Positions 1-59,200 of a DNA stretch of 64,000 nucleotides are shown here, one piece after another. Below the pieces are notes generated by a model. That model was given only the letters and a program-made list of their open reading frames with translations. It was not told where the DNA came from and did not search any database. The translations under genes and the position numbers were made by a program. The stretch's first letter is position 1. The number at the start of each line of letters is the position of its first letter. Origin of the DNA: Botryllus schlosseri (Eukaryota); contig CM119371.1 in the NCBI GenBank assembly GCA_051294905.1, positions 40,178,001 through 40,242,000 on the forward strand, read 5' to 3'.

Positions 1-405
1 GTGGGCCATTTCATGTTAATCTTGGGGGGTTCAATAATTTAGGAGCCATACTTGTACTCGCTAGATGGCGTATGCTTGACGATACTTCCTGGTCTGGTCT
101 AAGGGAATATTCTGGATATAGCTGTGATAGGGTACAGTTTGTCAATAGTAATTGGCCCACCGGACGTTCCCTCACTGTATCTACCGATCTTGTTTGGACA
201 ATATCTTATTCGCGCTACTACTGTGTCGTATTATAATTTGGATATAAGGAAATTCGATCAATTGGAACTTCAAGCAATATACTTTTCTACCGTACTTCAA
301 GATCGCGTATATTTGCATCGGGAAACTTATAGGACTTTGCGGCGCTGTAAGTTCAAGGGAAGACAGCTTACACAGAATCACATAGGCAGTTCAGCGACCG
401 CAACA
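1..405 (+). repeat. 5' LTR (first ~7 bp outside the window)
   Basis: Matches 4876-5280 at offset 4875; the spurious ORFs inside translate identically; ends in CAACA. Confidence 0.95.
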
Positions 406-622
406 GTAGATACAGCTAAAGGTCCGGTCGTGGAGTAAATACACTGAACGGCCAGGAAGCGGAACAGTAACACAGGACGGCTATCGGTACATAAGGAAAG
501 GACAATTCCATATTCTGTGGATTGGTGCCGGTAATAGGACTTGCTTCATTCATACTGATATTGGAGAAAAGGACACACTTCTGTTCAAGAAAACAGTAAG
601 TTCATGTACTCTGGTTTTAATA

Positions 623-3600: not shown

Positions 3601-4810
3601 CTTGATCATTCGCCATTTTCATGGAAAGGTCAATCATATGGGACGTGGAATTACGCACAATGAGATACGTCAACATGGATATTGGATTATAGGTGGTGTG
3701 AGCGCTGTCTCTCAGCACATCCACCAATGCATAACTTGTCGGAAATTACGGAAACCATTATCGGCACAAAAGATGTGCGATTTACCAGAGTCGAGAATGG
3801 CTGAGCAAGGTCCATTCACATTTTGCTCGTGCGATTTCTTCGGGCCATTTGAAATCAAAGAAAGGCGATCCGTATTGAAAAGGTACGGAGTTATTTTCTC
3901 GTGTATGTCATCCAGAGCTATACACTTGGAGACGACTAACTCTATGGACTTGGATTCATTCATTAATGCATTGAGAAGATTTCTTGCAAGAAGAGGGCCG
4001 ATAAAATCACTGTTGAGTGATTGCGGAAGCAACATCATTGGGGGAAAGAATGCTTTCCAAAAGGCGATGGGTGAGATGAATCAGAAAAAGGTCAGAGATT
4101 ATCTCTTGTCTGAAAATTGTGATCTGATAGAATTCAACTTTCACGTGCCAAAAGCTAGTCATATGAATGGGAATGTCGAACGCCAAATTCTTACGGTGCG
4201 TCGTGTTTTGGAATCATTGCTTTGTCAAATAGGTTCACATTTGGATGATGAATCACTCAGAACCTTTTTCGCAGAAGTAGAAAATGTGGTAAATTCAAGA
4301 CCACTAACTGTTATCAATTTGGGTGATGTCAATGCGCCAGAACCATTGACACCGAATCATCTGTTAACGATGAAACCAAAAATTTTGTTGTCACCTCCAG
4401 GGGAATTTGGCAAGCCAGATCTCTATGCAAGAAGGCGCTGGAGAAGAACACAATACGCTGTGAATCAATTTTGGTTCAGATGGAGAAGGGAGTTTTTACC
4501 TGGCATGCAACAACGCACTAAATGGAGCAAAGTTAGTCGAAATGTTCGCGTGGGAGATATTGTTATCGTTCATGATGATGACCTTCCGCGAAACTCTTGG
4601 AAATTGGGAATCGTACACTCGGTTTCGAGTTCGACAGATGGGCTGGTGCGAAAGGCCAAGATACGCATCGCCGACCGTACTATTGATCAGCACGGAAGAA
4701 GAATCAACGATGTGCAGTTTTTGGAGCGACCTATCCACAAATTGGTCGTGCTTCTCGCTGCAGAGGAAGTTACCGAGGATTCCACCGACGAGGAGCCACT
4801 AATGGACTAA
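623..4810 (+). CDS. BEL/Pao Gag-protease-integrase polyprotein with in-frame loss of RT and RNase H
   Basis: Gag motif FDGNILEYLAWETSF. Three Cys/His knuckles (CYFCEEPHHIDDC, CFGCGSSQDHMAKYC, CRICKRRHLTSLH). Aspartic protease LDGQS. Integrase HHCC (HFHGKVNH..CITC), DDE core (DFFGPF, SDCGSN, NVERQI) and C-terminal RRWRRTQYAVNQFW. No YxDD, DAS, PRLEL or NPAD motifs. Confidence 0.95.
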   Translation: MTPGRNRKKSGKASRGGRNGVNSRNSTLVGEDNVDSDPNRIMAEDYKHGHTVISDRRTRGTSAFIENMKQEFDFRVKEVLRQCKCLNDLLESRDVREYVSEAYLDMQKKFALLQDFWMDLEPRLRPEELEEISRSFKDIQDHVEETGNNAKDHLDEYNGEVKAKFSEPTPRRNRFAVLEDSNSPERETALLVEQMKRDNEQKMKDLSAQNQRDLQRLIDRGRKSTPSSVLDNTENVMDRAPNNDGAHGIYHVNANLDQVLKELAVSNAMLARSCGLPEIKVGVFDGNILEYLAWETSFDALIQSKTCNVHELLNYLESHLSGEPKEMIKGLLLLQSRDAYEKARKRLKNRYGNDNVVGNAFLNRLSSWPKINVKDGIGLRKFADFLDQIAAAEQKIPALGVLNYAIESNKIIGKLPQFLRGKWRDEVYKWRSKYGEASYPPLKEVAGFIDVCAEKMNIPELDDLDSPNDKGKIGTPEVVSNRDSYKGKFKVTSFSTECQDDTSVTRTKCYFCEEPHHIDDCEGFGKLSHIDKREFIMKRGLCFGCGSSQDHMAKYCTARIICRICKRRHLTSLHVEPDEVDSKCTQVCSQEGQEGGKQNTMIVPVYVSTAANPSKKVKCYCALDGQSNRTFIIDDLKETLGLKSVNTKLQMSTLYKSGAVINSSRVTGIKVSSIDETSSVTIPQVYTRAEIPIQISQIPKPQVAREWAHLRSIADKIMPYDPSMKIGIIIGTDVPNALRPHEVVAGDDEDPYGQLSMFGWGIVGNVCKDLKGESSSVVSHHTIVREAQMEEGFETSEVVAEGNTAFVYMTKAKEVMCPQEINHLLEMDFIEHRNLEASLSVEDKRFMDILSNGVSRREDGHYEFPLPLKYDNVRVPNNRPLAAKRAVANCLQFKDRLKGLPINSSLTVERLSMAERIILKDLQSEFFPDELERLDSASKSKGSTVKKDSPLYKLDPFVDCDGLIRVGGRIRNSSLSTEVKNPILLPRKSHVTDLIIRHFHGKVNHMGRGITHNEIRQHGYWIIGGVSAVSQHIHQCITCRKLRKPLSAQKMCDLPESRMAEQGPFTFCSCDFFGPFEIKERRSVLKRYGVIFSCMSSRAIHLETTNSMDLDSFINALRRFLARRGPIKSLLSDCGSNIIGGKNAFQKAMGEMNQKKVRDYLLSENCDLIEFNFHVPKASHMNGNVERQILTVRRVLESLLCQIGSHLDDESLRTFFAEVENVVNSRPLTVINLGDVNAPEPLTPNHLLTMKPKILLSPPGEFGKPDLYARRRWRRTQYAVNQFWFRWRREFLPGMQQRTKWSKVSRNVRVGDIVIVHDDDLPRNSWKLGIVHSVSSSTDGLVRKAKIRIADRTIDQHGRRINDVQFLERPIHKLVVLLAAEEVTEDSTDEEPLMD

Positions 4811-4859
4811 TGTTTTACTTAATTTGCAAAAAAGTTCTTTGTCATTTTATAACTTTTTT

Positions 4860-4868
4860 GGGGGGGTA
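4860..4868 (+). promoter_or_regulatory. Polypurine tract
   Basis: GGGGGGGTA immediately 5' of the 3' LTR's initial TG. Confidence 0.75.
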
Positions 4869-5280
4869 TGTTACTGTGGGCCATTTCATGTTAATCTTGG
4901 GGGGTTCAATAATTTAGGAGCCATACTTGTACTCGCTAGATGGCGTATGCTTGACGATACTTCCTGGTCTGGTCTAAGGGAATATTCTGGATATAGCTGT
5001 GATAGGGTACAGTTTGTCAATAGTAATTGGCCCACCGGACGTTCCCTCACTGTATCTACCGATCTTGTTTGGACAATATCTTATTCGCGCTACTACTGTG
5101 TCGTATTATAATTTGGATATAAGGAAATTCGATCAATTGGAACTTCAAGCAATATACTTTTCTACCGTACTTCAAGATCGCGTATATTTGCATCGGGAAA
5201 CTTATAGGACTTTGCGGCGCTGTAAGTTCAAGGGAAGACAGCTTACACAGAATCACATAGGCAGTTCAGCGACCGCAACA
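4869..5280 (+). repeat. 3' LTR (412 bp)
   Basis: TG...CA termini (TGTT/AACA); matches 1-405. Confidence 0.96.
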
Positions 5281-5789
5281 ATAGGCCATGTGCAGTGTAC
5301 ACACTATTCCATCGCTGGCCTGCACAATCGCATCTTGATTGGCTTGGTGCTCACGATATTATCGTTGACCTACACAATCGCATCTGCAATAGGCCTACGA
5401 ACGATATAATCGCTGGCCTAACCATCTCGGACCCAGCATGCATTGGCTCCTATCTCTCCATGGCTTGTTGACGATATGCCGTTAAGTGTATTCTAATTAG
5501 TGATTCTGAGAGTGACACCGCGAAACTGAATGACATCGAATGTTCGCAAAAATGTGCGTGCGTGCAAGCGTAATTGATTTCCGCTGATGATTAATTCGAA
5601 AAAAAAAGATCGAAACCCCCTGATTTCATTTCAATCCCCCTACATTTTCGGCTGGCTGCGTGCCTGATCACGTGAATTAGAGCGAGGTATCATGTCGGCA
5701 TCAATTCCAGTATCAGCTAGTCGTCTTTCTAGTACTCCAAACCTAAACATAAGGATGGTCAAAAGGATGTAAAGCCGTTGAAGTTTCCG

Positions 5790-23233: not shown

Positions 23234-23545
23234 CTAGGGCGCTATATACATAAAAGGCAATAAAATATAAAAGTAAACGATATGTATAAAAGACGGAGTG
23301 CATAGTTGTAGGGCGAAATGAACACTATATTGTAGTTCGAACGCTCGTGTGAATAAAACGGTCTTGATTTTGCGTTTGAAAGCATATAGCGAGTCACAGT
23401 CTGATAGAAAATGGAAGATTGTTCCACTGAATGCGGCGGCCGAGAAAGGAAAGGCTCTCTCGCCGTAGGTCGATATTCTGACTCTTGGAACTGACAAGAG
23501 TTTTTGCGACTGAAAACGTAGCGCTCTTCCGGGATTATTCAAGTT
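23234..23545 (-). mobile_element. L2/CR1-group LINE 3' fragment
   Basis: RALRFQSQKLLSVPRVRISTYGERAF...FKRKIKTVLF is typical of the ORF2 C-terminus; frameshifted. Confidence 0.75.
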
Positions 23546-31144: not shown

Positions 31145-31557
31145 TTACACGTAATTGTAGACTCAAATCCATAAGCCTATAAATTCTACTTCGCGGTGGG
31201 AATTTTGTGGTAACACCTTGTTTCTTCTGTTCGTCACATATGATTCTATTACAACAATCGATGGGTATGCTATTTACCCTGGTTGGCGGACGTCCTGTTA
31301 TAAACTCACAATGAGGTCATCCAGCCAGCAAATAATCAAATATCAGCTTACAAAATACTTGTAGCATCACCTATAAAAGAAAGCCGGTCATTCTTGTACC
31401 ATAATAGTATAAAGTCAGTTCGGTATCGGATCAAGACGGACGTCTCAAGCATCCAATGACGATTTGCATATGGCATATGTGCTTGGAAAAGAATTAACTT
31501 TCGACTATTTGCGACAATACTTGGGTCTGAAGTGACTTCAGTAGCGATCCGGATATC

Positions 31558-32427
31558 ATGAGCTTGCTTGGAGCATATTTGTCGGCTATACTGTCACTGG
31601 TGAACTTTGTGACGGATATCTGCTCGGTTTGGATATACTGGATGCACACGGACGATAGTTTGGACGGTTTCTATGTAGCGCTAATCTCTACACTGATCTT
31701 ATTTATAAGTCCCATACCTATTACCATGGGTATAGCGTGTACCTTCACCAAAAGATCCACTAAAGTGGAAAAAACTTTGCGCAAAGCAAAAACGCTCGAA
31801 TTGACATTGACAGCTGTACCTCAACTATGGATCAGTTTATACGCTTTATCAGTGGGCGCAAATCTACTTTACGGGGAAAGAACACTATTACTCGTGTCAT
31901 CAGCTATGTCGTATTTATCAGTATGCGCGATCTTACCGCGTGCCGATAACAAAATGTTAAGTAAAACCTTTCAAAACGATTCCATGACTGACTTCGACCG
32001 TTTCGTGGTTAACGCCTCAAAATGTGCGATGTTTATGGCGCGAATTTTGTTGCTGGTTTACATGACCTCACAGATCGGATGGTATTATACGGCTTTGTTT
32101 TTTGGGACACATTGGATTTTGTTATCTGCTCTGTGTTTTTGTACGATTTCAAGACATTATACCAATCCGTGTCGAAATGCTGTTGACGCGATCGAATCAG
32201 GACTTTTGCATTTCTTCTCGTGGGTATGTCCAGTTAAGCGGTCTTGGTCTCATTTCTTCATAACGGCGTATTTTATTTTGGAGCACGTTCTAGCGTGGAT
32301 CTTGTTGCTGTGTTTGCCTAACAACCAATCTACTTTTCTCATCGTCAATGTACTGGCATTTCATGTGTTGATGAATACTATCGCTACTTTTTTCATGGTT
32401 GCGTATGTTATTAAGAAATGGCCGTGA
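31558..32427 (+). CDS. XK-related (XKR family) multi-pass membrane protein, intronless ORF
   Basis: 289-aa hydrophobic ORF with XK-family landmarks in order: NFVTDI in TM1, LELTLTAVPQLWISLY (cf. E..LES.PQL.LQLY), SSAMSYLS, ARILLL, FGTHW, YFILEH. Confidence 0.82.
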   Translation: MSLLGAYLSAILSLVNFVTDICSVWIYWMHTDDSLDGFYVALISTLILFISPIPITMGIACTFTKRSTKVEKTLRKAKTLELTLTAVPQLWISLYALSVGANLLYGERTLLLVSSAMSYLSVCAILPRADNKMLSKTFQNDSMTDFDRFVVNASKCAMFMARILLLVYMTSQIGWYYTALFFGTHWILLSALCFCTISRHYTNPCRNAVDAIESGLLHFFSWVCPVKRSWSHFFITAYFILEHVLAWILLLCLPNNQSTFLIVNVLAFHVLMNTIATFFMVAYVIKKWP

Positions 32428-33469: not shown

Positions 33470-33633
33470 TTTAATGATATATTCATGACAGAAATATATT
33501 AAAACCCGAAGCTTTTCGAGCTAACACTATTCAGCGGCAATCGTCAGCGAATGGAGAATTTCAAAAGCATATTTCTGTCATGAATATATTATTAAAATAT
33601 ATATTATAGTTCTGTACCCCAAAGAGTCTCTTC
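33470..33633. mobile_element. Divergent Penelope pLTR insertion (inverted arm plus tail) with variant hammerhead on the minus strand
   Basis: Minus strand reads GCTGACG...CTGAATAG TGTTAGCT CGAAA AGCT TC GGG; tail GTTCTGTACCCCAAAGAG. Confidence 0.7.
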
Positions 33634-33824
33634 AAAAATAATCGATTAACACGCGAAATCTTCATATTTTGACTTATGGCCGACTACACAATGCACACGA
33701 TAAGTTGCCAACCCTTGGCCTACGGAAATATCGAAAAATTGGACAAGCAATAAAAATCAAGATACCTATTTCAATACGAGGCACAATGGAAGTAAAAGTG
33801 TCAGCCAAAACATATACCAGCATT

Positions 33825-34095
33825 TGAATAGCTTCTTGGGGGTACAGACTACAGAACCTCAATATAACAATGATTAGCATATTCATATTGAAATGAACCC
33901 GAATATATTAGGCTGGCACTCGTCAGGGGTAATCGTCAGCAACTAGTAGAGATCTGGAAAGAACATTGTATTGTACCATTGTTGATATAAAATGTTCTCT
34001 CCAATTCTCTACTAGTTGCTGACGATTGCCCCTGACGAGTGTCAGCCGGAAATATTCGGGTTCATTTCAATATGATTATTCTATTCAATTGTATA
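33825..34095. mobile_element. Tail-out inverted pair of Penelope pLTR fragments, both hammerhead cores mutated
   Basis: Minus arm ~33825-33975 includes the tail; plus arm ~33978-34095; both match 38110-38223. Confidence 0.87.
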
Positions 34096-34944
34096 TATTA
34101 GCTAGAATGTATTCCAGTTTCATACTCTTCTTTCTCCTTTCTGCGGATGATGTCATATATGAAGTGGCGGAAGAGCATTGTTTCAAGTCTATCGTTATAG
34201 CGTTGCTCCATTCGTTGCCTACAAACCCAGTATAAAAGTACGGTAATGTGACCGTGCCTTGCCTGTAATAATATATTGCGTTGTAGTCTACGATTCTCAC
34301 GGCGTCATGTTTTCATCACTGGCCGCGTGATGTGATTGTGATACTATCGTCTGTTCCAGGCGAATCACGTTGCAGACCACCTGATCTGCGAAGGTGTGGG
34401 CGAGGCGTGACTTATTACTAAGCGAATCGCATAAACCCGATATCAACTTCGGGCAGCGTGTCTAATGTCACGTCTAACGTCAACATTTGATCTAAGCAAA
34501 TCTTTTTGGTGTCGACATCAGACGCTGTTCACGAATCAATCTCGTCTAAACATCATTGGAGTATTGCCAGATCGCAGATCGCATATGTTATGTACCGGTT
34601 GGAATGTTTCCGTGCGGGCCGTTTCGATTTTTGATTGGGTAGAATCGCATGTGTGTTTGGTTTGTAAATAGCATTGTGTAATTTGCGTAATATGTATAAG
34701 TCTGACGTATTGTAACTCAATGTGCGAACGCACCCCACTTGATTTCGACGATGTTGTCAGTAATACTTAGTAGAAAAGTCACCATCTCTGATTGAACTAA
34801 CTACTTCGTTACAGCTTAATATTAACTTACTTTAATTGGCGTAAATATTTGTTATGCTCCGTACAGTATACACATTTTTTGTGGTTTTGTAGTTTTCGTT
34901 AGCATTTTACTTTTAGTAGCAATATCCCAATCGATGCTATATAT

Positions 34945-35122
34945 ACAATACATTGTATATAATGCCGGTGACGTCATTGTTGGTCATACGATTGTTGATT
35001 TACAATGTTCTTTCCAATTCTCTACTGGTGTTTGACGATTACCCGAAACCTTCGGATTTGTTTCAATATGAATATATTATTCAGTTACATATTGAGTTTC
35101 TGTACCTCCAAGAAACTTTTCA
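34945..35122 (+). mobile_element. Degenerate Penelope pLTR fragment, hammerhead core deleted
   Basis: Similar to 38085-38223 plus tail (CTGTACCTCCAAGAA); CTGACGA-stem II is missing. Confidence 0.75.
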
Positions 35123-36244
35123 AGTTGATATCATTTCTATATTATTATGTACGGATGCAGTAGCAGTAATTAGTCATCGGCCACCTCTACATATCTCGTA
35201 GATGTAAGACCAGTGGATTGTACGATTTACATATAGGACATTCCAGCAGACTGACCTGACAATACACTTCGCCTAACGCTGTACGAAATATGCGGTGTCT
35301 GGCCAATATATTCGTGTCTATCAGTCACACGCGGCATTCATAACATGCGTCAATCCCGTTCACAGCAACTGAAACGCCTACTTGCGATGCGAAAAGATGT
35401 CTTCAAACACAATATTGTTGTGTCATGACTAGGGTCTGCTGGTAATATTTCCTGGTTCAAACATACGGGATATCTCACTTCGAGTGCAGTTAAATTGCCG
35501 CATCACGTCGCTTTGAAATGGAATGACAGATTCCTCGCAAATAGGTAATAAACCCGGATAATTGAGATATCAATAAAACTCGATAACTTTGCAGTAAAAT
35601 TAGTATGCTGTAGCTTAAAGTTCCTCCGTCGAAAGAATCTGTTCCGTGTTCAGTTCAATGCTAATATGACAGATAGCAAATGGACGAGGATTGAGAAACC
35701 GCTCGGCCTGATCATTTCAACGCCCGCAATTGATATCAACAGGTATAAATAGCTACCACCACAAGCTTTGGTAACGCCGAAGTGTACGCGAACGGGTAAT
35801 TTACCGTTAATATATTGATCAATCTGTTTGGGTGAGGTCGATGTGAATAGAAATCGGTAATTCGATGAAGCAAGCCACTGCATCAAGTCGACCGAAATTC
35901 TGGCAGCATACGTCAAATGATACCACTGCTGAATCTCTCTTCTCAAATGGAACCGACAAGTTTTGCCTTCCAAGTTAATAAAGCTCGAATCTAGTTATCT
36001 CTATTGAAAGGATGGTAGCCTATGTTTACCAAGGTCATTGTATTTACGCCGTAGCGTAACGATGACTTCTGATCGCGTACCAGGGAAATACCTCAAGTAT
36101 AGTTCATAGGGAGGATAAAAAATGACGTATTCTATAGAACTGCTTAGGCAGGCCCACTGTATTTCTCATAGTCGTTATTTGAACAGCTTCTTTGAGGTAC
36201 AGAACTTCAATATACAATTGAATAGTATATTCATATTAAAATGA

Positions 36245-36288
36245 ACCCGAATATTTTCGGCTGACACTCGTCAGGGGTAATCGTCAGC
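36245..36288 (-). ncRNA. Minimal type I hammerhead ribozyme (left arm)
   Basis: Reverse complement of 38152-38195. Confidence 0.85.
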
Positions 36289-36379
36289 AACTAGTAGAGA
36301 ATTCGAAAGAACAGCGTATATCAACAATCGTAACACAAAATATGACGTCACCAGCACGAAATGTCGAATACGAGAGCGT

Positions 36380-36953
36380 TCAATGTACTATTTTTAGATG
36401 ATACACGAACTCTTTTTGTTGACACAGCCTTGGCTGGTGTATTTTGATAAAAGTCGACTCCAAGGCGCACAAATGAAAGTGTGAGCGACCCTTTCCGAGT
36501 ATGCGAAATCTGTCGTCTCGATAATTTTTCGCGCAGGCGGGATTATCCAACAAGTGTTTGCCAATTGCAGAATTTATGGCCTTTGATTGTTCCGCATCAA
36601 TCTTGAGCGGGTGAGTTAAGGGTGAGCTTTTCATCGAGCGTGTTCTAATGAATCTAGGGACATGCTGATTTATGCGTTCCTGCAATCGCTTTGACGTTCT
36701 TCCCACGTAGCCACAATCACAGTGACACTTAAATTCATAAACTACATTGCTTTGCTGAAGTGCGGGTAGCACGTCTTTACGTGTTGCGGGGAGCAGTTGC
36801 GCTGTCGTGAAAATCACGTTGGTCTTCACTGTGTCGTAACACTTATTGACCGCTGAAATCAATTGCTTTTCAAAGCGGGTGGAAATAGGCCCTATCCAAG
36901 GTAGATGGATGTAAACATCTTTGGTTGTTCGTTCGGTAGGCTCTGTTGACTTT
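36380..36953 (-). pseudogene. Inverted duplicate of the GIY-YIG endonuclease half of the Penelope ORF
   Basis: Translation identical to the C-terminal ~190 aa of the plus-strand ORF. Confidence 0.9.
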
Positions 36954-38060
36954 AAAATAGACGGCATATCGATGGGATCTCCCTTGGGACCTATTTTGGC
37001 TAACATTTTCGTAGGATTTTATGAGGTCGAGCTTCTCACCCAGCGTGTGTCCGCCAAACCGGTGTTGTACCGACGTTATGTAGACGACACTTTTGTCATT
37101 TTCAGAAATGAGATAGACTGTGATCAATTTCTCATTCACTTAAACTCGCTTCACCCGGCTCTGTTATTCACAATTGAAAAAGAACGAAATAACTCATTGT
37201 CATTTTTGGACGTTTTAGTCGAAAAACATGATACCAATAAATTTGAAACGTCAATCTTCCGGAAACCGACATTCACTGGCCAATACCTTCGTTGGAACTC
37301 ATTTAGTCCTAGACGCGGAAAAATCAACCTCATAGGCACCCTCGTGCATAGAGCGTTGATGATATGTTCGGGTAATAAACTGAACTCAGAACTTGACAAT
37401 ATCCGGAAAATCTTACTTGATAACGGTTACCCTGAACATGTCATCAACCGTGGCATAGAGAGGAAAGTAACGCATTTCAATGCAGAAAAGTCAACAGAGC
37501 CTACCGAACGAACAACCAAAGATGTTTACATCCATCTACCTTGGATAGGGCCTATTTCCACCCGCTTTGAAAAGCAATTGATTTCAGCGGTCAATAAGTG
37601 TTACGACACAGTGAAGACCAACGTGATTTTCACGACAGCGCAACTGCTCCCCGCAACACGTAAAGACGTGCTACCCGCACTTCAGCAAAGCAATGTAGTT
37701 TATGAATTTAAGTGTCACTGTGATTGTGGCTACGTGGGAAGAACGTCAAAGCGATTGCAGGAACGCATAAATCAGCATGTCCCTAGATTCATTAGAACAC
37801 GCTCGATGAAAAGCTCACCCTTAACTCACCCGCTCAAGATTGATGCGGAACAATCAAAGGCCATAAATTCTGCAATTGGCAAACACTTGTTGGATAATCC
37901 CGCCTGCGCGAAAAATTATCGAGACGACAGATTTCGCATACTCGGAAAGGGTCGCTCACACTTTCATTTGTGCGCCTTGGAGTCGACTTTTATCAAAATA
38001 CACCAGCCAAGGCTGTGTCAACAAAAAGAGTTCGTGTATCATCTAAAAATAGTACATTGA
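36954..38060 (+). CDS. 5'-truncated Penelope RT (C-terminal part) plus GIY-YIG endonuclease
   Basis: DGISMGSPLGPILAN, YRRYVDDTF, LSFLDV, IFRKPTFTGQYL, then NVVYEFKC..CGYVGRTSKRLQERINQH and LESTFI. The N-terminal RT is missing; the ORF-track start at 36921 lies in the inverted arm. Confidence 0.92.
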   Translation, partial: KIDGISMGSPLGPILANIFVGFYEVELLTQRVSAKPVLYRRYVDDTFVIFRNEIDCDQFLIHLNSLHPALLFTIEKERNNSLSFLDVLVEKHDTNKFETSIFRKPTFTGQYLRWNSFSPRRGKINLIGTLVHRALMICSGNKLNSELDNIRKILLDNGYPEHVINRGIERKVTHFNAEKSTEPTERTTKDVYIHLPWIGPISTRFEKQLISAVNKCYDTVKTNVIFTTAQLLPATRKDVLPALQQSNVVYEFKCHCDCGYVGRTSKRLQERINQHVPRFIRTRSMKSSPLTHPLKIDAEQSKAINSAIGKHLLDNPACAKNYRDDRFRILGKGRSHFHLCALESTFIKIHQPRLCQQKEFVYHLKIVH

Positions 38061-38151
38061 ACGCTCTCGTATTCGACATTTCGTGCTGGTGACGTCATAT
38101 TTTGTGTTACGATTGTTGATATACGCTGTTCTTTCGAATTCTCTACTAGTT

Positions 38152-38195
38152 GCTGACGATTACCCCTGACGAGTGTCAGCCGAAAATATTCGGGT
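38152..38195 (+). ncRNA. Minimal type I hammerhead ribozyme (right arm)
   Basis: ACCC-CUGACGA-G[UGUCAGC]C-GAAA-AUAU-UC^GGGU. Stem I is ACCC/GGGU; stem III is the palindrome AAUAUU; loop II is complementary to upstream GCUGACG. Predicted cleavage after 38191. Confidence 0.85.
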
Positions 38196-39647
38196 TCATT
38201 TTAATATGAATATACTATTCAATAGTCGTTATTGTAAAATGATAACTATGGCTGACTTATAACAGCTCGTTCGCATTGAAGTAAGACGTTGTGAAGTTGC
38301 GTCATTGGAAGTCATCAGATTACTTGGGATACACATCATGTGTTTATCGCAGTAGTGGAGAAATTCGGTACCTTGACTCATGCGTGACTCTATAGTGAAT
38401 ACGATCACTTATACGGGGAAATATTCAGGTATCTTGCTCAAGCTATGGGTATGAATACTTGAGATCAAGCGACACAGACGCTTTCATCGTAATTATCATG
38501 TTTCGATTCCAGATACTTCAAGACTTGCAATACAGTTAATAAAAAGGAAGGAACAGAAACGACTAATTAATCAAACTCATTTCTTAGCCTACAAATATAT
38601 AGTTAGCAATCGGATAAAAAACGTGATAAAGGAGGCATACACGCCATAGTCTAGTTTTAATGAGAAATGTCATTCAGAATTCCAGGTAAACAATGAAGAG
38701 ACATTTTACAGAATAGTGTACAGGCGAAGTCGCTGTGTCAAGATCAATTCGACAATCTCAATACGCACCCTATATTAATCCGATAAAATGGACATGCATT
38801 TAGACTTCAAGGTGATCATGGTCATGGTCATCGGTCATACTTTGAAAGCTCTGCTATCGAACCAAAGAGGGCTTGTACACATGTGCGTTAGATTTCATAG
38901 TACTGAAGGTGTCAAATTCAGCGGACAGATACATAGATTGAAAGAATACATTAACTAGCAATTTCTAGCTACCTCGTTTCTTTATTATTCAAGGCTCGAT
39001 TTGATCGAAAAGAATCTCACAGAACTAACTTACATAATATTAGTCGTATAACTGAATTCGGTATACGTATTTACAGGTGATATAGTCACTTTCGTTTGAT
39101 CGTGTTTTTGCGTTTGGTTGCTACTACTGCGCCAACATTGGGTTTGGCTGTGAATAGCTGGTGCTTTCGCGTGTGTCATCATTCTCCTAGCGAACGTATT
39201 AGATCGTTATGCTATTCACTCCCAGTTTTCTCTATTCAATTTATTGTGTGTTATGAACTTGGGCTGTATAAATGTCGTACGATAGGGGGTGTTCTTCAAG
39301 GATTCTGCTGTAGACCCTACGTACACTGTACCGGAATCATACTTATTGGATTACATGAGCGTGAGCTTGAGCATCCTGTATAATGAATAATTGTCCGATC
39401 GAATTTATATCAAACAGTGCAAGTTGCCTACATAAGAGGCCCTTGATTACAGGGGAAATGGCTATCCCATTTGCCTGGAAAATAACTGGACAGTTGATAG
39501 TTATACAGTTAGACAGTTCTGCAGGCGATAATGCGTTGATTATAGGTTGCAAGGTCAATTTGATTTTGATGCTATATGGTGGTAGCAACAGGACATGTTT
39601 TGTTCAGATAATACGACTTATACAAGTTTCTTTAATATTACGAACTG

Positions 39648-41282
39648 ATGATGTCGGGGAAGCAGTCGGTTCCGGAGCTGCAAATTTCGCAGACAATAAC
39701 AAAGCACCTTCAGAGATCGCGTTTCAGTGGGAAGTACGCAGATTTCAAAATCATAGTCGGCAGCAAAGTGTTCCCAGCTCACCGCTTTATTCTCGGAAAC
39801 AAATCGGCGTTTTTCCGTGACCTGATTCATAATAACGCAAATAAAGACACCCCAGTATCGTGTGATCATTCGGAATACTCATCAGATGCTGTCGGCGTAT
39901 GCTTGGAATACATTTACACAGATCGACTCGAGTTCGAGTCTCACAACGCGCCGGCTGTTTTGCGCGTGGCGCATCATTGGACTTTGCGTTATGTCGTCAC
40001 CAAGTGCGAGCAATTGCTGAAGACTAGCATAACGTCGTCAAACTGTATCAAAACAAGAGCGCTGGCTACGAAACTTGGCCTTGCGGACCTCGGGGAGTGC
40101 GCTAACAGGGCTATTCTTGGGCATTTTGAAATGGTGACTAAAGCTAAAGATCTAATCATTTTATCAGTTGATGATATGAAGTCCATTAAAGAGACAGCTA
40201 TGGAAAGAGCATCAGTACGCATTAAAGACTTATGGACTCTATTTTACACATGGCACAAACGAAAAAACAAGGCTGGATCTCACACCTTATGCGAATGCTT
40301 GCATATATTCCCGTTCGACCAGTTTACAGTCACCGGTTTCAAAGAGCAGATATGGAAAAACGAACACGTGTCGAACTGTGACCAGTGTCAGGAAGTCGCG
40401 GTAAGGGCGTTTCTGAGTACATTTGACGAGCCACGTAAAGGCGACGACGTTTTATTCCTTAAAAAGCTCGCGAAGAAATACAATTTTCGTACGTTGAACG
40501 AAATTACGCGCAGACACATTGTAGAGAATCATTTATTTATATTCACAAATCACGACATGGGCGAGCTCGATAACGATGATTTGATGGAGTGCATTAACGA
40601 TATCGAGGACATGTGCACGCCCGGTGAGTTTACGGCGATCGTGAAATGGATGGTAAAATCGAAAAAGCGACAAGGAATTTTCCCGCAAATATTTAAATGC
40701 GTGGAGGATCCTACCTGCGCGCCACACAACGTGTTTCTGTCCAGTATTGGCGGATTTTTTGGTCTTTCCGAACCCACCGCGGCAGAAGTAGCATGTTCTA
40801 TTTCACGTGAGCAATATTGGTGGCCGAAATACTGCCTTTTCCTCAAAAAGCTGGCGGGAAAATACGACTGTAGTGTTACAGAGAAATTCGTGGATCAATG
40901 CATAGCCGGGGGTTTTGCCGAGGTCTGTGAAGACGTCGGTTTTTTAGAACTAAGTGCTCCTGACTTGATAACTTATCTGTCGTCGAAGTCCACGTATAGC
41001 TGTCGTGAAAGCCAGATTTGGGGGGCGATCATGTGCTGGATTCGTCATCACGAGTCGAGACGGGAGTCGTTTCAGGCTATCTTCGATTCGCTAAAGCTAG
41101 AAGAATTTACGACCGGTTTCCTGAGGTCGAACATATTAATCAACGCGTTAGTGATGGAGTCCAAAGCCAGTGTTTTCTCCGTGATGAGGGAGATTCTGCG
41201 AAGATTAGAAATATTGGAAAGCGAACACGCGGAAATGAAGAAAAACCTTCGCAACAAAATCGATCGGAAACAGACGAAATGA
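39648..41282 (+). CDS. BTB/POZ protein with repeated BACK-like modules and a C-terminal coiled coil, no Kelch repeats; intronless ORF
   Basis: BTB: YADFKIIVGSKVFPAHRFILGNKSAFFRDL...LEYIYT. BACK-like segments begin at HFEMVTKAKDL, NHLFIFTNHDMGEL and FAEVCEDVGFLELS...ESQIWGAIMCWIRH. Confidence 0.9.
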   Translation: MMSGKQSVPELQISQTITKHLQRSRFSGKYADFKIIVGSKVFPAHRFILGNKSAFFRDLIHNNANKDTPVSCDHSEYSSDAVGVCLEYIYTDRLEFESHNAPAVLRVAHHWTLRYVVTKCEQLLKTSITSSNCIKTRALATKLGLADLGECANRAILGHFEMVTKAKDLIILSVDDMKSIKETAMERASVRIKDLWTLFYTWHKRKNKAGSHTLCECLHIFPFDQFTVTGFKEQIWKNEHVSNCDQCQEVAVRAFLSTFDEPRKGDDVLFLKKLAKKYNFRTLNEITRRHIVENHLFIFTNHDMGELDNDDLMECINDIEDMCTPGEFTAIVKWMVKSKKRQGIFPQIFKCVEDPTCAPHNVFLSSIGGFFGLSEPTAAEVACSISREQYWWPKYCLFLKKLAGKYDCSVTEKFVDQCIAGGFAEVCEDVGFLELSAPDLITYLSSKSTYSCRESQIWGAIMCWIRHHESRRESFQAIFDSLKLEEFTTGFLRSNILINALVMESKASVFSVMREILRRLEILESEHAEMKKNLRNKIDRKQTK

Positions 41283-46297: not shown

Positions 46298-48194
46298 CAG
46301 TGATGAGCGGACTGTGATATTTTTCGGTCCAAGTCCAATCCTGAAAATTTTTAACTCACTCCTACTCCATCCTGATCCAAAAATATTTTCAAAATTCACA
46401 GTCCAAGTCCGGTACTGAAAATTTTCAACTCAGTCCTACTATATACTGATCCAATAATATTTTCAAAACTTACAGTCCAACTCCATCCTGATCCAAAAAT
46501 ATTTTCAAAATCTAAAGTCCCAATCTATAAATAAAAAACGGAAGAACATGTTATAGAGAATAATTAGGCTATCTGAAATATAACTCTGGTCTGTGAAAAG
46601 ATGTATATTTCCAATGTTTGCCTTCCCTCGAGCTGCAGTGGGCCTACATGACACAGCAACTTTAATTTTACATTTTAGAAACACGAATGTAAATATCTAG
46701 ACTGGCAAGATGGCTATCAATACCTAACCATCAAATCATGAGCAATGTGCATGTACGTACGTACAATGACATCAGGGTTGATCATTATAGTTTTTTTTAT
46801 AAATTTGACTGGCTAGTTGATAAAATTGTTAGGTCGGTTTGAACAAACGCTGCACATCAAATTCGATTCAATTCCAGCCTGTAGAAGCGAAGTTATTACA
46901 ACTGGAAAATTTTCAATATAATAAAAAGTATACACACTTTTTCGAATTATACTGGCTGCCCGTCCCTATAAAGTTTTGTAAGAAAATCGTGCATAACAAA
47001 TTTGACTCAATTCCAACCCGCACGGTATTTACTGTGGGATATTCTCTCATCAATAATTATAGATCTGCAACACTACTTTGAAGAGCTTCTTGGAGGTACA
47101 GAACTTGAATATACAATTGAATAGTATATTCATATTGAAATGAACCCGAATATTTTCGGCAGAAACTCGTCAGGGGTAATCGTCAGCAACTAATAGATAA
47201 TTGAAAATAACATTGTATATCATCAATCGTATCACAAAATATGACAGCCGAAAATATCCGGGCTCATTCCAATATGAACATACTATTCAACACCATTTTT
47301 CTAACCCAAAATTTTCCACTTCAAAGAATTCACCTACACCGGTTGGAATTCAACCAGTAGCCTCTTTAGCCAGTAAATTTCGAAAAAAAGTTATATCTAT
47401 CCAATCCTAATGTACCTACTATCCATACCAGACAAACAACCAATATATTCACGTTCCGGGTCAATACACAACAAACTTGCCATAGTAGTTTGTTCCGTGA
47501 GTAGGTACATAAAATATTTTATCATCATCATCATTGGTTTATTAGCAATTTTATCAGTTCAATACACCACAAAAAATGCGATACAATGAAAAGACAGGAA
47601 GGTGTCGAAGCGACAAGGAGCAGTCTATGGAATCTGACACCCACCTTGGCCTAGGCGATATAAGGAGGAGGCATGCACACTGAATGAAAGTAAAGAAGAT
47701 AGTATGGAAAAAGAAAGCGACAATAAATAGGGCGGCATGTCATGGGAAGCGAGATCGATAGGTCAGTCGTGGTCCGGTAATCTTGAGGATGGACTGTATT
47801 TATTTAGTAGTAATTGCTTGTATTTCGACTTGAATGTGGACATGCTCGTCGACTGTCGGATGGCAGACGAAAGAACCAGCCAAATCACAATATATAGGTG
47901 AGCAACTACTACATTAACGATCAACTTGAATCAACGTCCATTGGCAACACTGGGAACAATTCTTCTCTCCATCCGCCCGCACTCAGCTATATAAACAAAC
48001 ACTGAGCTATATTAAAATACCCCGCACTTCTGGTTGCGAAATCAGCGTGCCCGAGTCCGGATTTTGGCATGTCCAAGTCCAACTATATTTTTGAAAATCA
48101 CAATCCGAGTCCAAACTTTTTTCTCAAAATCACTATCCGGACCTAACGAAAATAACCCATAATCCTGATCCTGTCCAATCCAATGCTCATCCTG
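46298..48194. mobile_element. hAT-type element (CAGTGATGAGC TIR) with nested MITE, Penelope and LINE fragments
   Basis: TSD TTACCTAC/CTACCTAC; AGTCC/ATCC subterminal repeats at both ends. Confidence 0.78.
47079..47288. mobile_element. Tail-out inverted Penelope pLTR insertion
   Basis: Minus arm with tail and intact CUGACGA/GAAA core; short plus arm ends TACTATTC; CAACAC in both flanks. Confidence 0.85.
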
Positions 48195-53291: not shown

Positions 53292-56200
53292 CTAACCAAA
53301 CCATGACTCACGATATAAAACTTCCAGCTCAGCATCGATATCATTTACAATCTTCAGGGCATTCTTCCAATCGTCTCCTTTCAACATGTCATCTTCACTC
53401 CAGTATATTAATGTTACTTTCTTCAAATTAGAGTTGTTGACGAGAGACGAAACGTCATAGACAGTAGCACGACCTCCAGGGCTGAATATGCATCTGATGC
53501 ATTCGATCTGCGACGGGAGAATATTACTATTAATATTGTGTGTTATAATGATGCTTCTTGCTATTGCTAGCCTTTTCACCTGGGGCAATGATTTGTTACA
53601 TGGTACTTTAGATCAGGGGTTGCCAACCTTTTAGCTGTTCACGGCCGCATTCCAGGACCAAGTCGCAATGAACTAATTGGATGCCAAATATCCATGTTAA
53701 ACTGCACATGTCCATTTCCGGTGAACTCCGGACTAATCTATCTATACAAATCAGCACACTAATTTCTGGAACCAATTGTGGTCGCACGAGCCGCGAAGTT
53801 TTCATAGGATTCGGGAATGAATTTTGTCATTAACATTAGTAGTTTCACATATTACTGCCAGACATTTCATTTTTTCTTTCTCAGCCCATGTGATCATATC
53901 CATCGGTTGAGTTCATGGAGGTGGGCGTTTCCGAAAATCTTGGGCAAATCATAATTGATGATTCATCTTTTGGTGGGCCGATTGTTAGTAGTCACTTTGT
54001 TGCATCCTAACTGTTGTTATTCCACGTCCCATCAGGATTGTCAGTATATAGTGGAAATATATTGAAATCGCCCAATAGTACCGGAATCAATTTTCTTTCG
54101 TGAGGAGCACACGATTCCAAGTTGGTATTTGTATATGGGGCCCTTCATTTTCATATGCTGTTCACATCTGTACTGCGGGGTTCCGATTGCGAAGGGCGCT
54201 CTTATATTAAAATCGCGCAAAATAAATTTCCATATTGATCACTATCGGTAGTCAATTTGTAAATTGAATATGCATGTTGTAGGTCACCAAAAAATAATAA
54301 TTGAATTACGTGTCGAAGGCCGCACAAATTCCATTCTACGGCCTCAGGTTGGCTATCCCTGCTTTAGATAAACTTATTGATAAGAATTACGAACTCCGCA
54401 ACTGCGGTGGATATCTAGGACAAGAAAAACAAGTTAATTCATGTGAAGGGGATTCGAACTGAACGGCAGAGTTAAATAATCAACGTGCGTTGGTGGAATA
54501 TGTACGTTGCATCTATGCAAATAACACCGGATCATAATTACTACCTTCTTTTGCTTGCAAGCTTCAACAATATTTCTGAATTTATCTCCTCTTGTAAAGC
54601 AGAACATTGCCTGGATACTGCCCAAAGCGGAAATTTCTCTGGCACGGTCCAAAATACTGTTGTAATTGTCGACGGATATCTGGCCATTCACAGCAATTTC
54701 CAAGGCCTCCATCTTAAATGCGGAAGATATAAGTTGTTAAATCTTGTAACAAGAATCGGTAATTTAATTAAAGACAGTTATTCCCGGAAGTTAAGATAGA
54801 CGCCTAAAGAATGATCAATTCTGATACTCGAGATATATAGGGAAATATAAATGCGTTTGAAAGCAATCTTAAATTCGAATGAGGAATCGTACTTGATACT
54901 TTTTCCAGGAAGTTTCAATTAGCGACCAATCGATATCTCCTCCCTCCGTGCAATCGAGCAAGATCTTGCTTATCTGAACACAATATTGGCTTCATGAGGT
55001 AAGATGACATCATCGTGACGTGGTCATGTATTGAAATCTATATTCATATTTTCACAGTATAATAGTGATTTCTTACAATTATTTGATTGTACACAATGCA
55101 TACTGAGCAGGATCTCTCGTTAGAATCTACTCATGAATATTCTTTGTATTGTATAAAGTAGTGGTGGTCAAAGTAGTCGTCGTCGATACTCAAGTAGAAG
55201 TACTCAATTACATTTCTACTCAAGTAGTATTAACGATATACAAGTAAGTAAGAAAGTAAGTACTCCAAGCCAAAGAATTAAAACTAGAGTTATACAGTAT
55301 TTCAAAATTAGAATTAGAGCTACACCATTTTTTTCCAAATGAGATTGGAATTAGAGCTACACAGTTTTTTTCCCATTTAGATTGTGATTAGAATTAGAGC
55401 TACAGTTTTTTTTTTCAATAAAATTATAATTAGAGCTACAGTTTTTTTCAAATAAGATTAAGATTAGAATTAGAGCTACACAGTTTTTTTTTTAAATAAG
55501 ATTAGGATTAGAATTAGAGCTACACAGTTTTTCCAAATAAGATTAGTATTAGTATTAGAGCTACACAGTTTGTTTTTTTTTTCAAATAAGATTAGAATTA
55601 GAGCTATACAGTTTTTTTCCAAATAAGATTACAGCTCTAATTATAATTATATTTGGAAAAAAACTGTAATTCTAATTCTAATCTGATTTGGAAAGAAACT
55701 GGGAAGCTCTAATAATAACTCTAATCTTATTTGGAGAAAAAACCGTATAGCTCTAATTATAATTTTATTTGGAGAAAGACTGTAACTCTAACTATAATTT
55801 TATCTGGAAAAAAACTGTGTAGCTCTAATTATAATCTTATTTGGAAAAAAACTGTGTAGCTCTAATTATAATCTTATTTGGAAAAAAACTGTGTAGCTCT
55901 AATTATAATCTTATTTGGAAAAAAACTGTGTAGCTCTAATTATAATCTTATTTGGAAAAAAACTGTGTAGCTCTAATTATAATCTTATTTGGAAAAAAAC
56001 TGTGTAGCTCTAATTATAATCTTATTTGAAAAAAAACTGTGTAGTTATGATTCATCGTCTTGATGCCATCTAGTGCGGCATCAAAAAGAGCAACCAGCCG
56101 CCGCCATCATTAACCACATTCCCACGGAGCCATGGCGCAGAGGTGGCTGGAATCGGAAAACATGGCGTTCGACATGGAGACTGATCTAGCGCAACGGGGG

Positions 56201-59200
56201 CTGTCGCTTGAAGACGCCCACGACCGCCTACGTTGGAGATGCCTAACACGAGCCCAAAGCTGATTATCTCGATGTTCTTTTGTTTCCTGTTTTCTTTTGC
56301 CCTTTTTATTTTATCTATTGGAAAAGTCGATATATATATCATTCTAATTTAATTCAATTTGGAAATAACTCTTTAACTATAGCACTAATTCTAATCTGAT
56401 TTGGAAAGAAACTGTGTAGCTCTAATTATGATCCTATTACAATTACAATCCAAATTAGATTGGGATTAGAATTAGAGCTACAGTTTTTTTCCCAATAAAA
56501 TTAGAATTAGAGCTACACAATTTTTGTTAAATAAAATGATAATTAGAGCTACACAGTTTTTTTCCAAAAAAGATTAGGATTAGAATTAGAGCTACACAGT
56601 TTTTTTCCAAAAAATATTAGGATTAGAATTAGAGCTACAGTTTTTCCAAATAAAATTTTAATTAGAGCCACACATTTTTTTCCGAATTAGATTAGAATTG
56701 GAAATAAAGCTACACAGTTTTTTATAAATTAGATTAGAATTAGAATTTGAGCTACACGTTTTTTTCCAAATTAGATTGAAATTATAATTAGAGATAAATT
56801 TTTTTTCCAAATTAGATTGGAATTAGAGTTATACAGTTTTTCAAAATTAGATTAGAATTAGAATAGAAGCTACACAGTTTTCTTTCAGAATTAGATTATA
56901 ATTAGAATTAAAGGTAGAGTGTTTTTTTCAAATTAGATTGGAATTAGAGTTATGCAGTTTTCCAAAATTACGGTACATTAGGATCAGAATTAGAGCTAGT
57001 TTTTTTTCGAATTAGATTAGAATTAGAGCTACGCTGTTTTTTTCCAAATTAAATTAGAATTAGAATTAGAGCTACACAGTAGGGGTCCCCAAAAATGACT
57101 TTTTTCCCAAATTCTATTGGCTGTTTGATAAAATTGATAGGTTACCCAATTCAAGCCTGCACACCAAGTTTGGTTCAATTCCAACCAGTAGTCGCATTGC
57201 TGCTGGAGAAGAATGTTTTTTCATTCATTATATAAAAATGTTTAAAAAAATTCAAAATTTTCTGTTCATCCCATGAAATTGTTCGGTTTTCTATAGAAAC
57301 GATGTTCGCCAAATTTGGCTCAATTCCAACCAGCGGAAGCGGAGTTATTGAGTATAAGTATATTGCCTTGACATGCAATGGTTCAGACACTGACAAGACC
57401 GAGTTGCTTAGGAAACGGCCTAGGGCGTCCTAGAGCGTTGTGAGGTATCGTGCGCAGCTCATATTGTTTAAAATAAAATGAAGTTCATGATGATGATATT
57501 TCTTGTATTTGTACTACTTCAATAAAATATTTCTTCCGATGCCCATGTTAGTGAGCACAGCGTTTTACTAATATAAAGTTTTAATACGTGGCTGCTCAAC
57601 TGTGTAGTCTATTTTGTCTCGATATTGCATTCTTGCGGCCCGCGGCCGCTACGAATATTTGGAAAGTGGCCAGCGACACGTTTTGAGTTGATGACTTCTG
57701 CACTATACAGTTCTCCTGAATGACTGTGCGGTGCAAGCAATGCGATGGCGACTTGGCACCCGATTTCCCTGCAAAATGCCGTGTACAAATAAACATTTTC
57801 AGGGAAACAATAAACTGGATTATAATTAGAATTAGAGCATAGAAGCATTACACAAATTAGAGTAGAATTAGATTACTGATTCGAGTCGAGTAGTAAAACA
57901 CATTTTTTCGAGCACTGAAATTATACGCTCCTCGCCACTGAAAGTGAATTTATCAACGAGAATTACAGTTTCGATTCTAATTTTCACTGTTGAAGATTAG
58001 AACAAGCCTTGAAATCTTGATTGGCCGGTTCGCAGCACATTTCCGAATTCATGATCATCCCACAACATTGTCACCAAGTGCAATGAAATCGGTATGGTCA
58101 AAAAATACCAAAGTATCTTTCATGTGATGGAGAACAGGTATTACCTATATTCTTTACGGTCGCCTAAAAGGTACACATTTGAACTTTGCCATAGTAGGCT
58201 ACATTTTGTTATGACATCATAACGAGTGATACTCGATTACTCGAAGCGTATTACGTGATTCAGAATCGAATAACTCAGATACTCGATCTTGCCCAGGCCA
58301 ACTTATAAGATCTTACATTTCCCACTTTCACTTGAAGTAGTTTTATTAAGTCTTTTAAAGAGCCAGTTCTACTTGTAATCGCGTATAAATTCAACAAGTT
58401 GCTTCTACTTGATTAGCAAGGCTGAGTACTTTGACCAGCTCTGCGTACACTCGAGACTCGACTCGAAACATTGGAGACTAGGTGTGTTCAAAAAAAAAAC
58501 TTTTTTCAAATTTCATCGGCTTAGTTGTCGAATCATCAGGTTACCTAAAATAACGTTGCTCACCAAATTTGAGTCAATTCCAACCAGTAGAATCGGAGGT
58601 CACTCAAATTGAAATTTCGGTCATTTTTGAAATAATAGTATTTACGGAGACCAATTTCGGTGAATTGAAAATGACTCAACTTGACTCGTGACTCAGTGCC
58701 TTGTGACTTGGTTACAACCCTGAGTTTGGATGAAGACATCGCCAGTAAACGAAAAAAGATATGGCACGAAATTACTTGAAAATGGGTCCACTTCATTGAA
58801 ATCGACATGTTGAAACGATGGTAAGATAATTTTCAAATATATTACTTTACACACTGAAATTACCGACCACAAAAAGGATATGAACTGACAAGAAGGTAAA
58901 ATACAGGTAAATATATTTCTCAAGTGACAGTCGAGAAGTATTTTTTGTCGGACCAATTTAGATTTCATTAAATCTATCCCAGTTACGCAAGACATACCGA
59001 TGTCTCTCTGCCTTGATTCAAAGTTTTTACTGATTGCAAAGTCGCCATTCCCAAAATCTCATCCACAGAGACGTCAGTTGCATTCCTCAGCAGCTCCGTG
59101 TTCGAATATTTCTCTGCTACTTGACATTGACTTATCCAGGGCTTTAAAAATGGTGCTGATTGCAATTCAGAATGGGCTATGCCACTGAATAGTATTTATG

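Follow-up and report, generated by a model that had tools for sequence, protein, structure and literature searches.

A minimal type I hammerhead motif with a predicted, covarying pseudoknot in the pLTR of a Penelope-like insertion of Botryllus schlosseri

The window analysed here is the whole stretch of 64,000 nucleotides taken from Botryllus schlosseri (assembly GCA_051294905.1, contig CM119371.1, positions 40,178,001 to 40,242,000 of the forward strand), and all coordinates below count from its first letter. Its left end (1–5284) is occupied by an LTR retrotransposon with a 1466-aa open frame and 409-bp repeats of 99.8% identity, which we take to be of the BEL/Pao type from its DUF1759, DUF5641 and integrase domains. 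An XK-related ORF is located at 31531–32427 (+) and an uninterrupted BTB-BACK ORF at 39636–41282 (+), the latter 1.4 kb downstream of the promoter-like region of the element described below. No read-through toward the BTB-BACK gene was seen in three RNA runs, as the RNA depth was near zero in 38275–38500. A complex degenerate array of tandem and inverted repeats with a unit of about 37–40 bp covers 55270–57080. A descriptor scan also returned a loose hammerhead-like match near 23491 (+) with a CTGACAA core, an 8-bp stem I containing G·U pairs and a 12-nt loop, which is probably due to chance.

The insertion that carries the motif spans 36180 to 38223. It is placed between identical 10-bp direct repeats on the forward strand, the left TSD at 36170–36179 (12 bp with two ambiguous junction bases) and the right TSD at 38224–38233. 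It is a young, 5'-truncated Penelope-like element with an inverted copy, its youth being indicated by the intact frame, the near-identical arms and the perfect TSD. The inverted, 5'-truncated copy of the element end lies at 36180–36953 (−) and forms a 740-bp inverted repeat of 99.9% identity. The direct truncated copy follows, and its uninterrupted, 5'-truncated Penelope-like ORF at 36954–38060 (+) codes for the final part of a reverse transcriptase and for a GIY-YIG endonuclease. It gave a weak RVT_1 match (E 3e-4) and 1919 homologs, many with PF00078/PF26215 and some with PF01541; the GIY-YIG label of the window's own ORF is our assumption from its YVGRT and CCHH motifs. A 37-nt tail (36180–36216) is present in the inverted copy and absent at the right end, and it extends the N-terminus of the ORF (MNILFNCILKFCTSKKLF). 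Within this tail, a conserved AGTTCTGTACC stretch encodes a KFCT peptide that is common to distant families. TSD, inverted truncated copy, one-end tail and an ORF start within the pLTR were thus all found, as expected of a Penelope insertion. The same anatomy is described in the accessible text of two earlier studies (Arkhipova et al. 2013, PMC3846280; Craig et al. 2021, PMC8557442), namely an inverted truncated copy, a TSD of 8–10 bp, a one-end tail of 30–40 bp, a pLTR with TATA and Inr, and the first ORF codons in the pLTR. At this level the insertion is ordinary and no difference was found.

The motif lies in the pLTR of this RT and GIY-YIG element, and its first strand begins 92 nt past the stop codon of the ORF. 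Read directly from the window, stem I consists of ACCC (38162–38165, +) paired with GGGT (38192–38195, +). The catalytic core CUGACGA (C3 to A9) follows at 38166–38172 and is succeeded at 38173–38181 by a stem II of one base pair, G10.1 (38173) with C11.1 (38181), which closes the 7-nt loop TGTCAGC (38174–38180). The remaining part (38182–38191) comprises GAA (G12 to A14, 38182–38184), the palindromic, dimer-type stem III AATATT (A15.1 to U16.1, 38185–38190) and C17 (38191). From this anatomy, the cut is predicted between 38191 and 38192. Upstream of stem I, GCTGACG (38152–38158, +) can pair with loop II by six Watson-Crick pairs and one G·U pair as the 5' strand of a pseudoknot, and it overlaps a second CUGACGA at 38153–38159. 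The preliminary description had placed these elements at 38152–38195, with a complete core, a 4-bp stem I, a palindromic stem III, a single G-C pair closing UGUCAGC and a complementary GCUGACG overlapping the second box, and every one of them can be read in the sequence. CUGANGA, GAAA, UH, G10.1-C11.1, A15.1-U16.1 and a three-way junction open at stem I characterise a type I hammerhead. The motif is, as judged from its letters, a real type I hammerhead motif in the pLTR of a Penelope-like insertion, with self-cleavage predicted.

A second, identical hammerhead copy is found at 36245–36288 (−) in the inverted arm. The two hammerheads of the insertion, both intact, sit on opposite strands and therefore cannot dimerise in cis. 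In the whole window, nine copies were detected at E<0.01 with a covariance model that was built partly from the 38152–38195 copy itself; the seven others carry core or pseudoknot mutations, as in decaying copies. A diverged copy at 33504–33548 (−) has AAGCUU in place of AAUAUU as stem III palindrome and a U·G variant in the pseudoknot, and it probably belongs to another subfamily. Short inverted-pair insertions of the same family that hold the hammerhead-bearing end alone were seen at 33822–34096 and 47077–47290.

A helix comparable to the pseudoknot was rarely obtained by chance. It appeared in the shuffled upstream 16-mer with p = 0.004 (20,000 shuffles) and in one of 40 distinct chance matches to the core pattern. 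These controls came from two core-pattern scans of viral contigs that gave 88 loci in 40 distinct contexts, and they were treated as chance because just one has a 4-bp and one a 3-bp stem I. A motif alignment search of the viral contigs revealed no relative among 40 pattern matches, and another such search gave one weak locus. The comparison with Rfam hammerhead models suggested by the preliminary description returned no hammerhead match, neither at gathering score over the window nor at E≤10 over 501 bp around the motif and in seven relatives. The Rfam hammerhead models do not capture this minimal form.

Relatives of the element were collected by endonuclease alignment, comprising the best 80 of 410 confirmed metagenome loci and four further loci in two genome bins titled as bacteria, which are most likely eukaryotic contamination. 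Among the matches listed, 65 of 84 loci showed the hammerhead, as detected with a motif model, no more than 500 nt past the endonuclease. Of the 69 loci that leave 230 nt or more of downstream room, 63 carried it and six gave no motif match. The model was built from nine sequences, and the eight that stem from these loci necessarily match it. Nor are the 84 loci independent of one another, as 74 form a single family by our grouping (L003 type). The other families among the matches listed are L002, L017/018/027, L022, L049, L170–172 and L173, which brings the total to eight with the window and the L003 type. Endonuclease identity to the window is 40–59% for these seven families among the matches listed, and the DNA from stop codon to motif cannot be aligned between families beyond patches of 13–20 nt. 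The core is canonical in five of the eight families and compensated in a sixth, L002, in which C3-G8 is replaced by U3-A8. Deviations were observed in the L003 type (U3·G8 with U17 in most copies), in the L173 type (A6U in both copies) and in L170–172 (altered cores in three direct copies). N17 is C, U or A in all nine representatives.

Strand and loop change together across these families. GCUGACG faces UGUCAGC in the window, UCUGACG faces UGUCAGA in L002, the L003 type and L173, and UCCGACG faces UGUCGGA in L017. The pairs are UGACGCG/UGCGUCA in L022, UGACGC/AGCGUCA in L170 and GCAUU/AAUGC in L049. For an alignment of nine representatives, two from one family, that was hand-trimmed to the proposed helix and in which L049 stands one column out of register, 88.9% of the pseudoknot cells were paired. 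Both-sided changes occurred in six of the seven pseudoknot pairs, a value reached by none of 500 shuffles, and sliding the strands against each other lowered the pairing to 16–44% in the same nine sequences. Loops paired better with their own upstream strands than with exchanged ones, at 54 of 362,880 permutations, or 1 of 120 for the five distinct types. Six or seven pseudoknot pairs are kept in 38 of 44 distinct matches among those listed. The changes in L022 and L170 may be one 2-nt slip on both strands, so that about four independent compensatory events, not twelve, should be counted.

The other helices behave similarly. Stem I changed on both sides in all four pairs. Stem III stays palindromic, being AAUAUU in the window, AAGCUU in five families, AAAGCUUU in L017 and an imperfect palindrome, AACUUGUU, in L049; the motif thereby has the short palindromic stem III of PLE pLTR hammerheads. 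The terminal pseudoknot pair is G·U in seven of the nine representatives, which points to an RNA of the plus strand and not to a DNA inverted repeat. From this covariation the pseudoknot is judged to be real and conserved with compensatory changes in distant relatives. Two proposals of the preliminary description thus gain support, namely that this is a PLE hammerhead whose palindromic stem III is of the dimer type and that a pseudoknot stabilises its 1-bp stem II. An extension of stem I around the pseudoknot strand (UUCAU/AUGAA) was considered as well, is present in the L002 and L003 types only and was rejected as a general feature.

The motif is embedded between promoter-like sequences and the start of the ORF. 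A TATA-like box lies at 38120–38126 (+), 32 nt upstream of the pseudoknot strand. It reads TATACGC here, a degraded form of the TATACAA or TATAAAA found elsewhere in the family; the majority letters at 38125–38126 are known from family reads, and the function of the box is presumed from its place. With a loose pattern chosen post hoc, a TATA-like motif was found 30–37 nt upstream of the pseudoknot strand in all nine representatives, and it is a canonical TATAAA or TATATA in five of the eight families. An initiator-like sequence at 38146–38151 (+) would, from its spacing, set the start near A38148, and Inr-like TCATT or TCAGT occurs at a similar place in relatives, usually just upstream of the pseudoknot strand. 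A perfect TGACGTCA palindrome, presumably CRE-like, was also noted at 38090–38097 upstream of the TATA-like box and again in the copy near 34970.

Downstream of the predicted cut, a start codon and the first six ORF codons reach the right end of the insertion (38206–38223, +). The AUG at 38206 is in frame with the conserved KFCT peptide of the tail and of relatives, a KFC(T/S)-type N-terminus. An AUG follows N17 at a distance of 0–27 nt in seven of the eight families and of 4–27 nt in six. In L170–172 the predicted cut splits the AUG itself (A17 and the next two bases; position 1732 on plus-strand copies), and L022 has a CUG in the same register (C|UG, 1312–1314). Religation after the A|UG cut would rebuild the start codon. 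Judging from these positions, the ribozyme is predicted to occupy the 5' leader of the element mRNA, with a TATA/Inr-like promoter ahead of it and the start of the ORF behind.

This placement corrects the earlier suggestion that the motif defines the RNA end of the element. In three RNA runs and one DNA run, coverage by family reads and contigs fell from hundreds or thousands to near zero past 38223, and inserted copies consequently end 32 nt past the cut and not at the cut; the motif would belong to the 5' leader of the next element copy. Family reads were found on both strands and without a pile-up of ends in three raw RNA runs (3–6% of each) and one DNA run, standard cDNA libraries dominated by dispersed copies and not expected to resolve ends.

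The comparisons with published hammerheads given here refer to the accessible parts of the cited papers. PLE hammerheads cleave weakly and as dimers (PMC4209133). Like those of PLE pLTRs (Cervera & De la Peña 2014, PMC4209133), the window motif has type I topology, a stem I within 4–6 bp and a palindromic stem III implying dimers; a pLTR just downstream of an RT-GIY-YIG ORF, U3-A8 variants and many dispersed truncated copies are shared as well. In contrast, helix II comprises at least 3 bp in all 56 representatives of their Fig. S3, and A9 is usually followed by an extra base (PMC4209133), whereas the window motif has a 1-bp stem II, lacks the extra base and thus departs from the PLE min-HHR consensus (7–8 bp in S. 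mansoni). The word 'pseudoknot' is absent from the searchable part of the supplement of that study. Two reviews describe PLE hammerheads as devoid of tertiary interactions (PMC6155905, PMC7761336), unlike the window motif with its covarying pseudoknot. By location and stem III the motif is predicted to be a PLE hammerhead, but one outside the published min-HHR consensus.

A closer structural parallel is the PK (RAGATH-1) hammerhead (Zhan et al. 2024, PMC11300833, PDB 8YDC), whose stem II consists of A9·G12 and G10.1-C11.1 only. Both replace helix II by a pseudoknot of about 6 bp with the partner strand 5' of helix I. In the PK hammerhead, however, the partner strand is presented by the loop of helix IV, an additional hairpin with an A-rich linker that forms an A-minor triplex (PMC11300833), whereas in the window motif it is a single strand 1–6 nt upstream of stem I without a conserved helix IV, and stem III is of the dimer type. 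An equivalent of helix IV was sought and rejected, since inspection showed the strand to lie outside any conserved hairpin, with a linker of 1–6 nt. From its sequence, the motif is expected to work like the PK hammerhead but is not a member of the PK family, because it lacks helix IV and gave no match to an Rfam model. A pseudoknot between stems I and II is used by approximately 40% of hammerheads (Perreault et al. 2011, PMC3088659). A pseudoknot hammerhead with a 1-bp stem II cleaved at >1.2/min in a pseudoknot-dependent manner, and a shortened pseudoknot reduced its activity 20- to 100-fold (PMC3088659). The hammerhead tested there was a metagenomic type II monomer, whereas the window motif is of type I and the dimer type; repeat-type, dimer-dependent type I motifs were left out of the stem-length analysis in that study (PMC3088659).

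Pseudoknot hammerheads with a 1-bp stem II and dimeric Penelope hammerheads are thus each known singly, and their combination was not found in the literature searched. Lünse, Weinberg and Breaker reportedly described in 2017 about 150,000 PLE-linked hammerhead variants of a small-stem-III type, and their abstract is said to describe hammerheads as frequently forming a pseudoknot of loop II with the bases ahead of stem I. Given that abstract, a pseudoknotted PLE subtype may already be in print. In the full texts searched no pseudoknotted PLE hammerhead was found, and one may be described in the work of Lünse from 2017, in Arkhipova 2017 or in part of the Cervera supplement. None is mentioned in the accessible parts of PMC6765202, PMC10085705, PMC6466107 and the supplement of PMC8557442. 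From the sequence comparisons, the motif is considered a real, conserved variant in which each structural feature was already known on its own.

Taken together, the motif is probably a dimer-dependent type I hammerhead of a Penelope-like clade in which most of stem II gives way to a pseudoknot of 6–7 bp that brings stems I and II into line. By analogy with known hammerheads, 38152–38158 would pair with loop II co-transcriptionally, before stem I closes. The pseudoknot helix would stack on G10.1-C11.1 and the sheared A9·G12, so that stems I and II run parallel as they do in the crystal structure of the PK hammerhead, while stem III would form solely between two copies via the palindrome. At −0.2 kcal/mol, the dimer helix of AAUAUU has very little stability. 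With a program that cannot model pseudoknots, stem I was almost absent from the nested-fold ensemble of the window copy (0.2 pairs), and its minimum-energy fold, likewise without pseudoknots, consisted of two inactive hairpins (CUGAC/GUCAG and CCGAA/UUCGG; −10.9 kcal/mol).

Penelope is transcribed from the upstream pLTR of a tandem element (PMC2377424). In a putative full tandem element of the present clade, transcription would start a few nucleotides upstream of the pseudoknot strand in the upstream pLTR and run through the ORF into the downstream pLTR, where the hammerheads at both RNA ends could pair and cut. Cutting would remove a capped leader of about 44 nt and leave an uncapped, unit-length, ligatable RNA. 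We infer that cleavage may convert the mRNA into a template for reverse transcription, because the cut splits the start codon in one family. It is a speculative, rather doubtful extension that an undescribed, clade-wide hammerhead subtype forms the whole 5' leader between cap and start codon, that the pseudoknot makes a fast ribozyme which is held off until a second copy arrives from the downstream pLTR, and that cutting then removes the cap, splits the AUG in some families and yields the template. If true, the motif would sense full-length transcripts and switch them from mRNA to template, and it would offer a direct handle on the purpose of PLE hammerheads.

Several other readings were weighed against dimer cleavage. 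It is unlikely that the fold is kept mainly as a structure, for RT binding or translation control in the 5' leader, with cleavage slight or dispensable. The pseudoknot is indeed intact next to the deviant cores of the L003 type (U3·G8/U17) and the L173 type (A6U), PLE hammerheads catalyse poorly in vitro with non-cleavage roles left open (PMC4209133), and Naiad PLEs thrive without canonical hammerheads (PMC8557442). However, a canonical core in five families with compensation in the sixth, the restriction of N17 to C, U or A in the nine representatives and the covariation of both stem I and the stem III palindrome are what a catalytic dimer needs.

A two-state switch, in which loop II pairs either with its own CUGAC (off) or with the upstream CUGACG as decoy (on) and cutting depends on the presence of 38152–38158 in the transcript, seems quite improbable. 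The preliminary description had envisaged such an active/inactive switch and had singled out the second CUGACGA. For the window copy this idea has physical grounds, as a 5-bp hairpin of CUGAC (38166–38170) with GUCAG (38175–38179) dominates the minimum-energy nested fold. Once the upstream strand was included, loop-core pairing dropped from 4.9 to 2.9 pairs in the window, from 2.6 to 0.2 in L170 and from 1.7 to 0 in L017, and TGACG is kept in six of the eight families. Across the families the switch is weakly supported: loop-core pairing is negligible (≤0.1) in L022, L072 and L173 and minor (0.2–0.8) in L049, stays at 4.6 with or without the upstream strand in L002 and even rises from 0.2 to 2.9 in L044. 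Transcripts from the predicted start, moreover, already include the pseudoknot strand. The loop-core pairing is best read as a family-specific misfolding that the pseudoknot would outcompete, and not as a conserved switch. The upstream CUGACGA is complete in just three of the eight families (window, L002 and L003 type); it is CUGACGU in L173, and L017, L022, L170 and L049 have no such box. As an alternative core it was rejected, having neither a stem I of its own nor G10.1-C11.1, and in some families the look-alike CUGACG would arise as a side effect of the pseudoknot sequence and at most help against misfolding.

It is very unlikely that cleavage serves translation, the 5'-OH RNA beginning 14 nt upstream of the AUG and being translated cap-free, as reported for the type I hammerheads of mycovirus 5' UTRs. 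The predicted cut precedes the AUG by 4–27 nt in six families, and short-helix-II type I hammerheads upstream of viral ORFs were reported to drive cap-independent translation, one of them cutting 7 nt upstream of the AUG (PMC13725137). Against this, cutting inside the AUG in L170–172, and at the same place in the CUG of L022, would remove the start codon, and the TATA/Inr-like promoter implies a capped mRNA without need of a cap-free route. A DNA-level reading, in which the two complementary segments act as an inverted repeat or as a promoter motif with TGACG half-sites near the start, is highly improbable: TGACG does lie just downstream of the predicted start in six of eight families, the full TGACGTCA palindrome is nearby at 38090–38097 and a GACG-containing downstream promoter element was described for Drosophila Penelope (PMC2377424), but in L017 and L049 the letters change with pairing kept, the conserved G·U and further U·G variants pair as RNA on this strand only, and the second segment falls exactly in loop II, the seat of known hammerhead pseudoknots.

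The dimer-dependent, pseudoknotted hammerhead bears on a function that reviews, in their accessible text, call unknown, tertiary contacts for fast cleavage being described as absent. A clade that keeps a covarying pseudoknot suggests selection on a folded ribozyme, and its members would be the best candidates for efficient dimer cleavage. Earlier published tests may have missed activity if the upstream strand was lacking from constructs cut back to stem I. The compact layout of promoter, pseudoknot strand, core, cut and start codon suits testing whether cutting turns translation off or on. This form would escape descriptors that demand more than a few pairs in stem II, as it escaped the Rfam models.

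Two kinds of additional hairpins were observed close to the motif. AU-rich hairpins (UUCAU/AUGAA and UGAAUA/UAUUCA) lie at the right end of the insertion (38195–38221). In L022 and L170, matches resembling the histone 3' stem-loop (Rfam RF00032) scored 27.7 and 25.5 bits and did not reach the gathering score (34). They are located at L022:1319–1365 and 1385–1420 (+) and at L170:1738–1782 (+) and 920–955 (−). This hairpin starts a few bases past the hammerhead and overlaps the first ORF codons, and it could be a 3'-end signal or a chance match.
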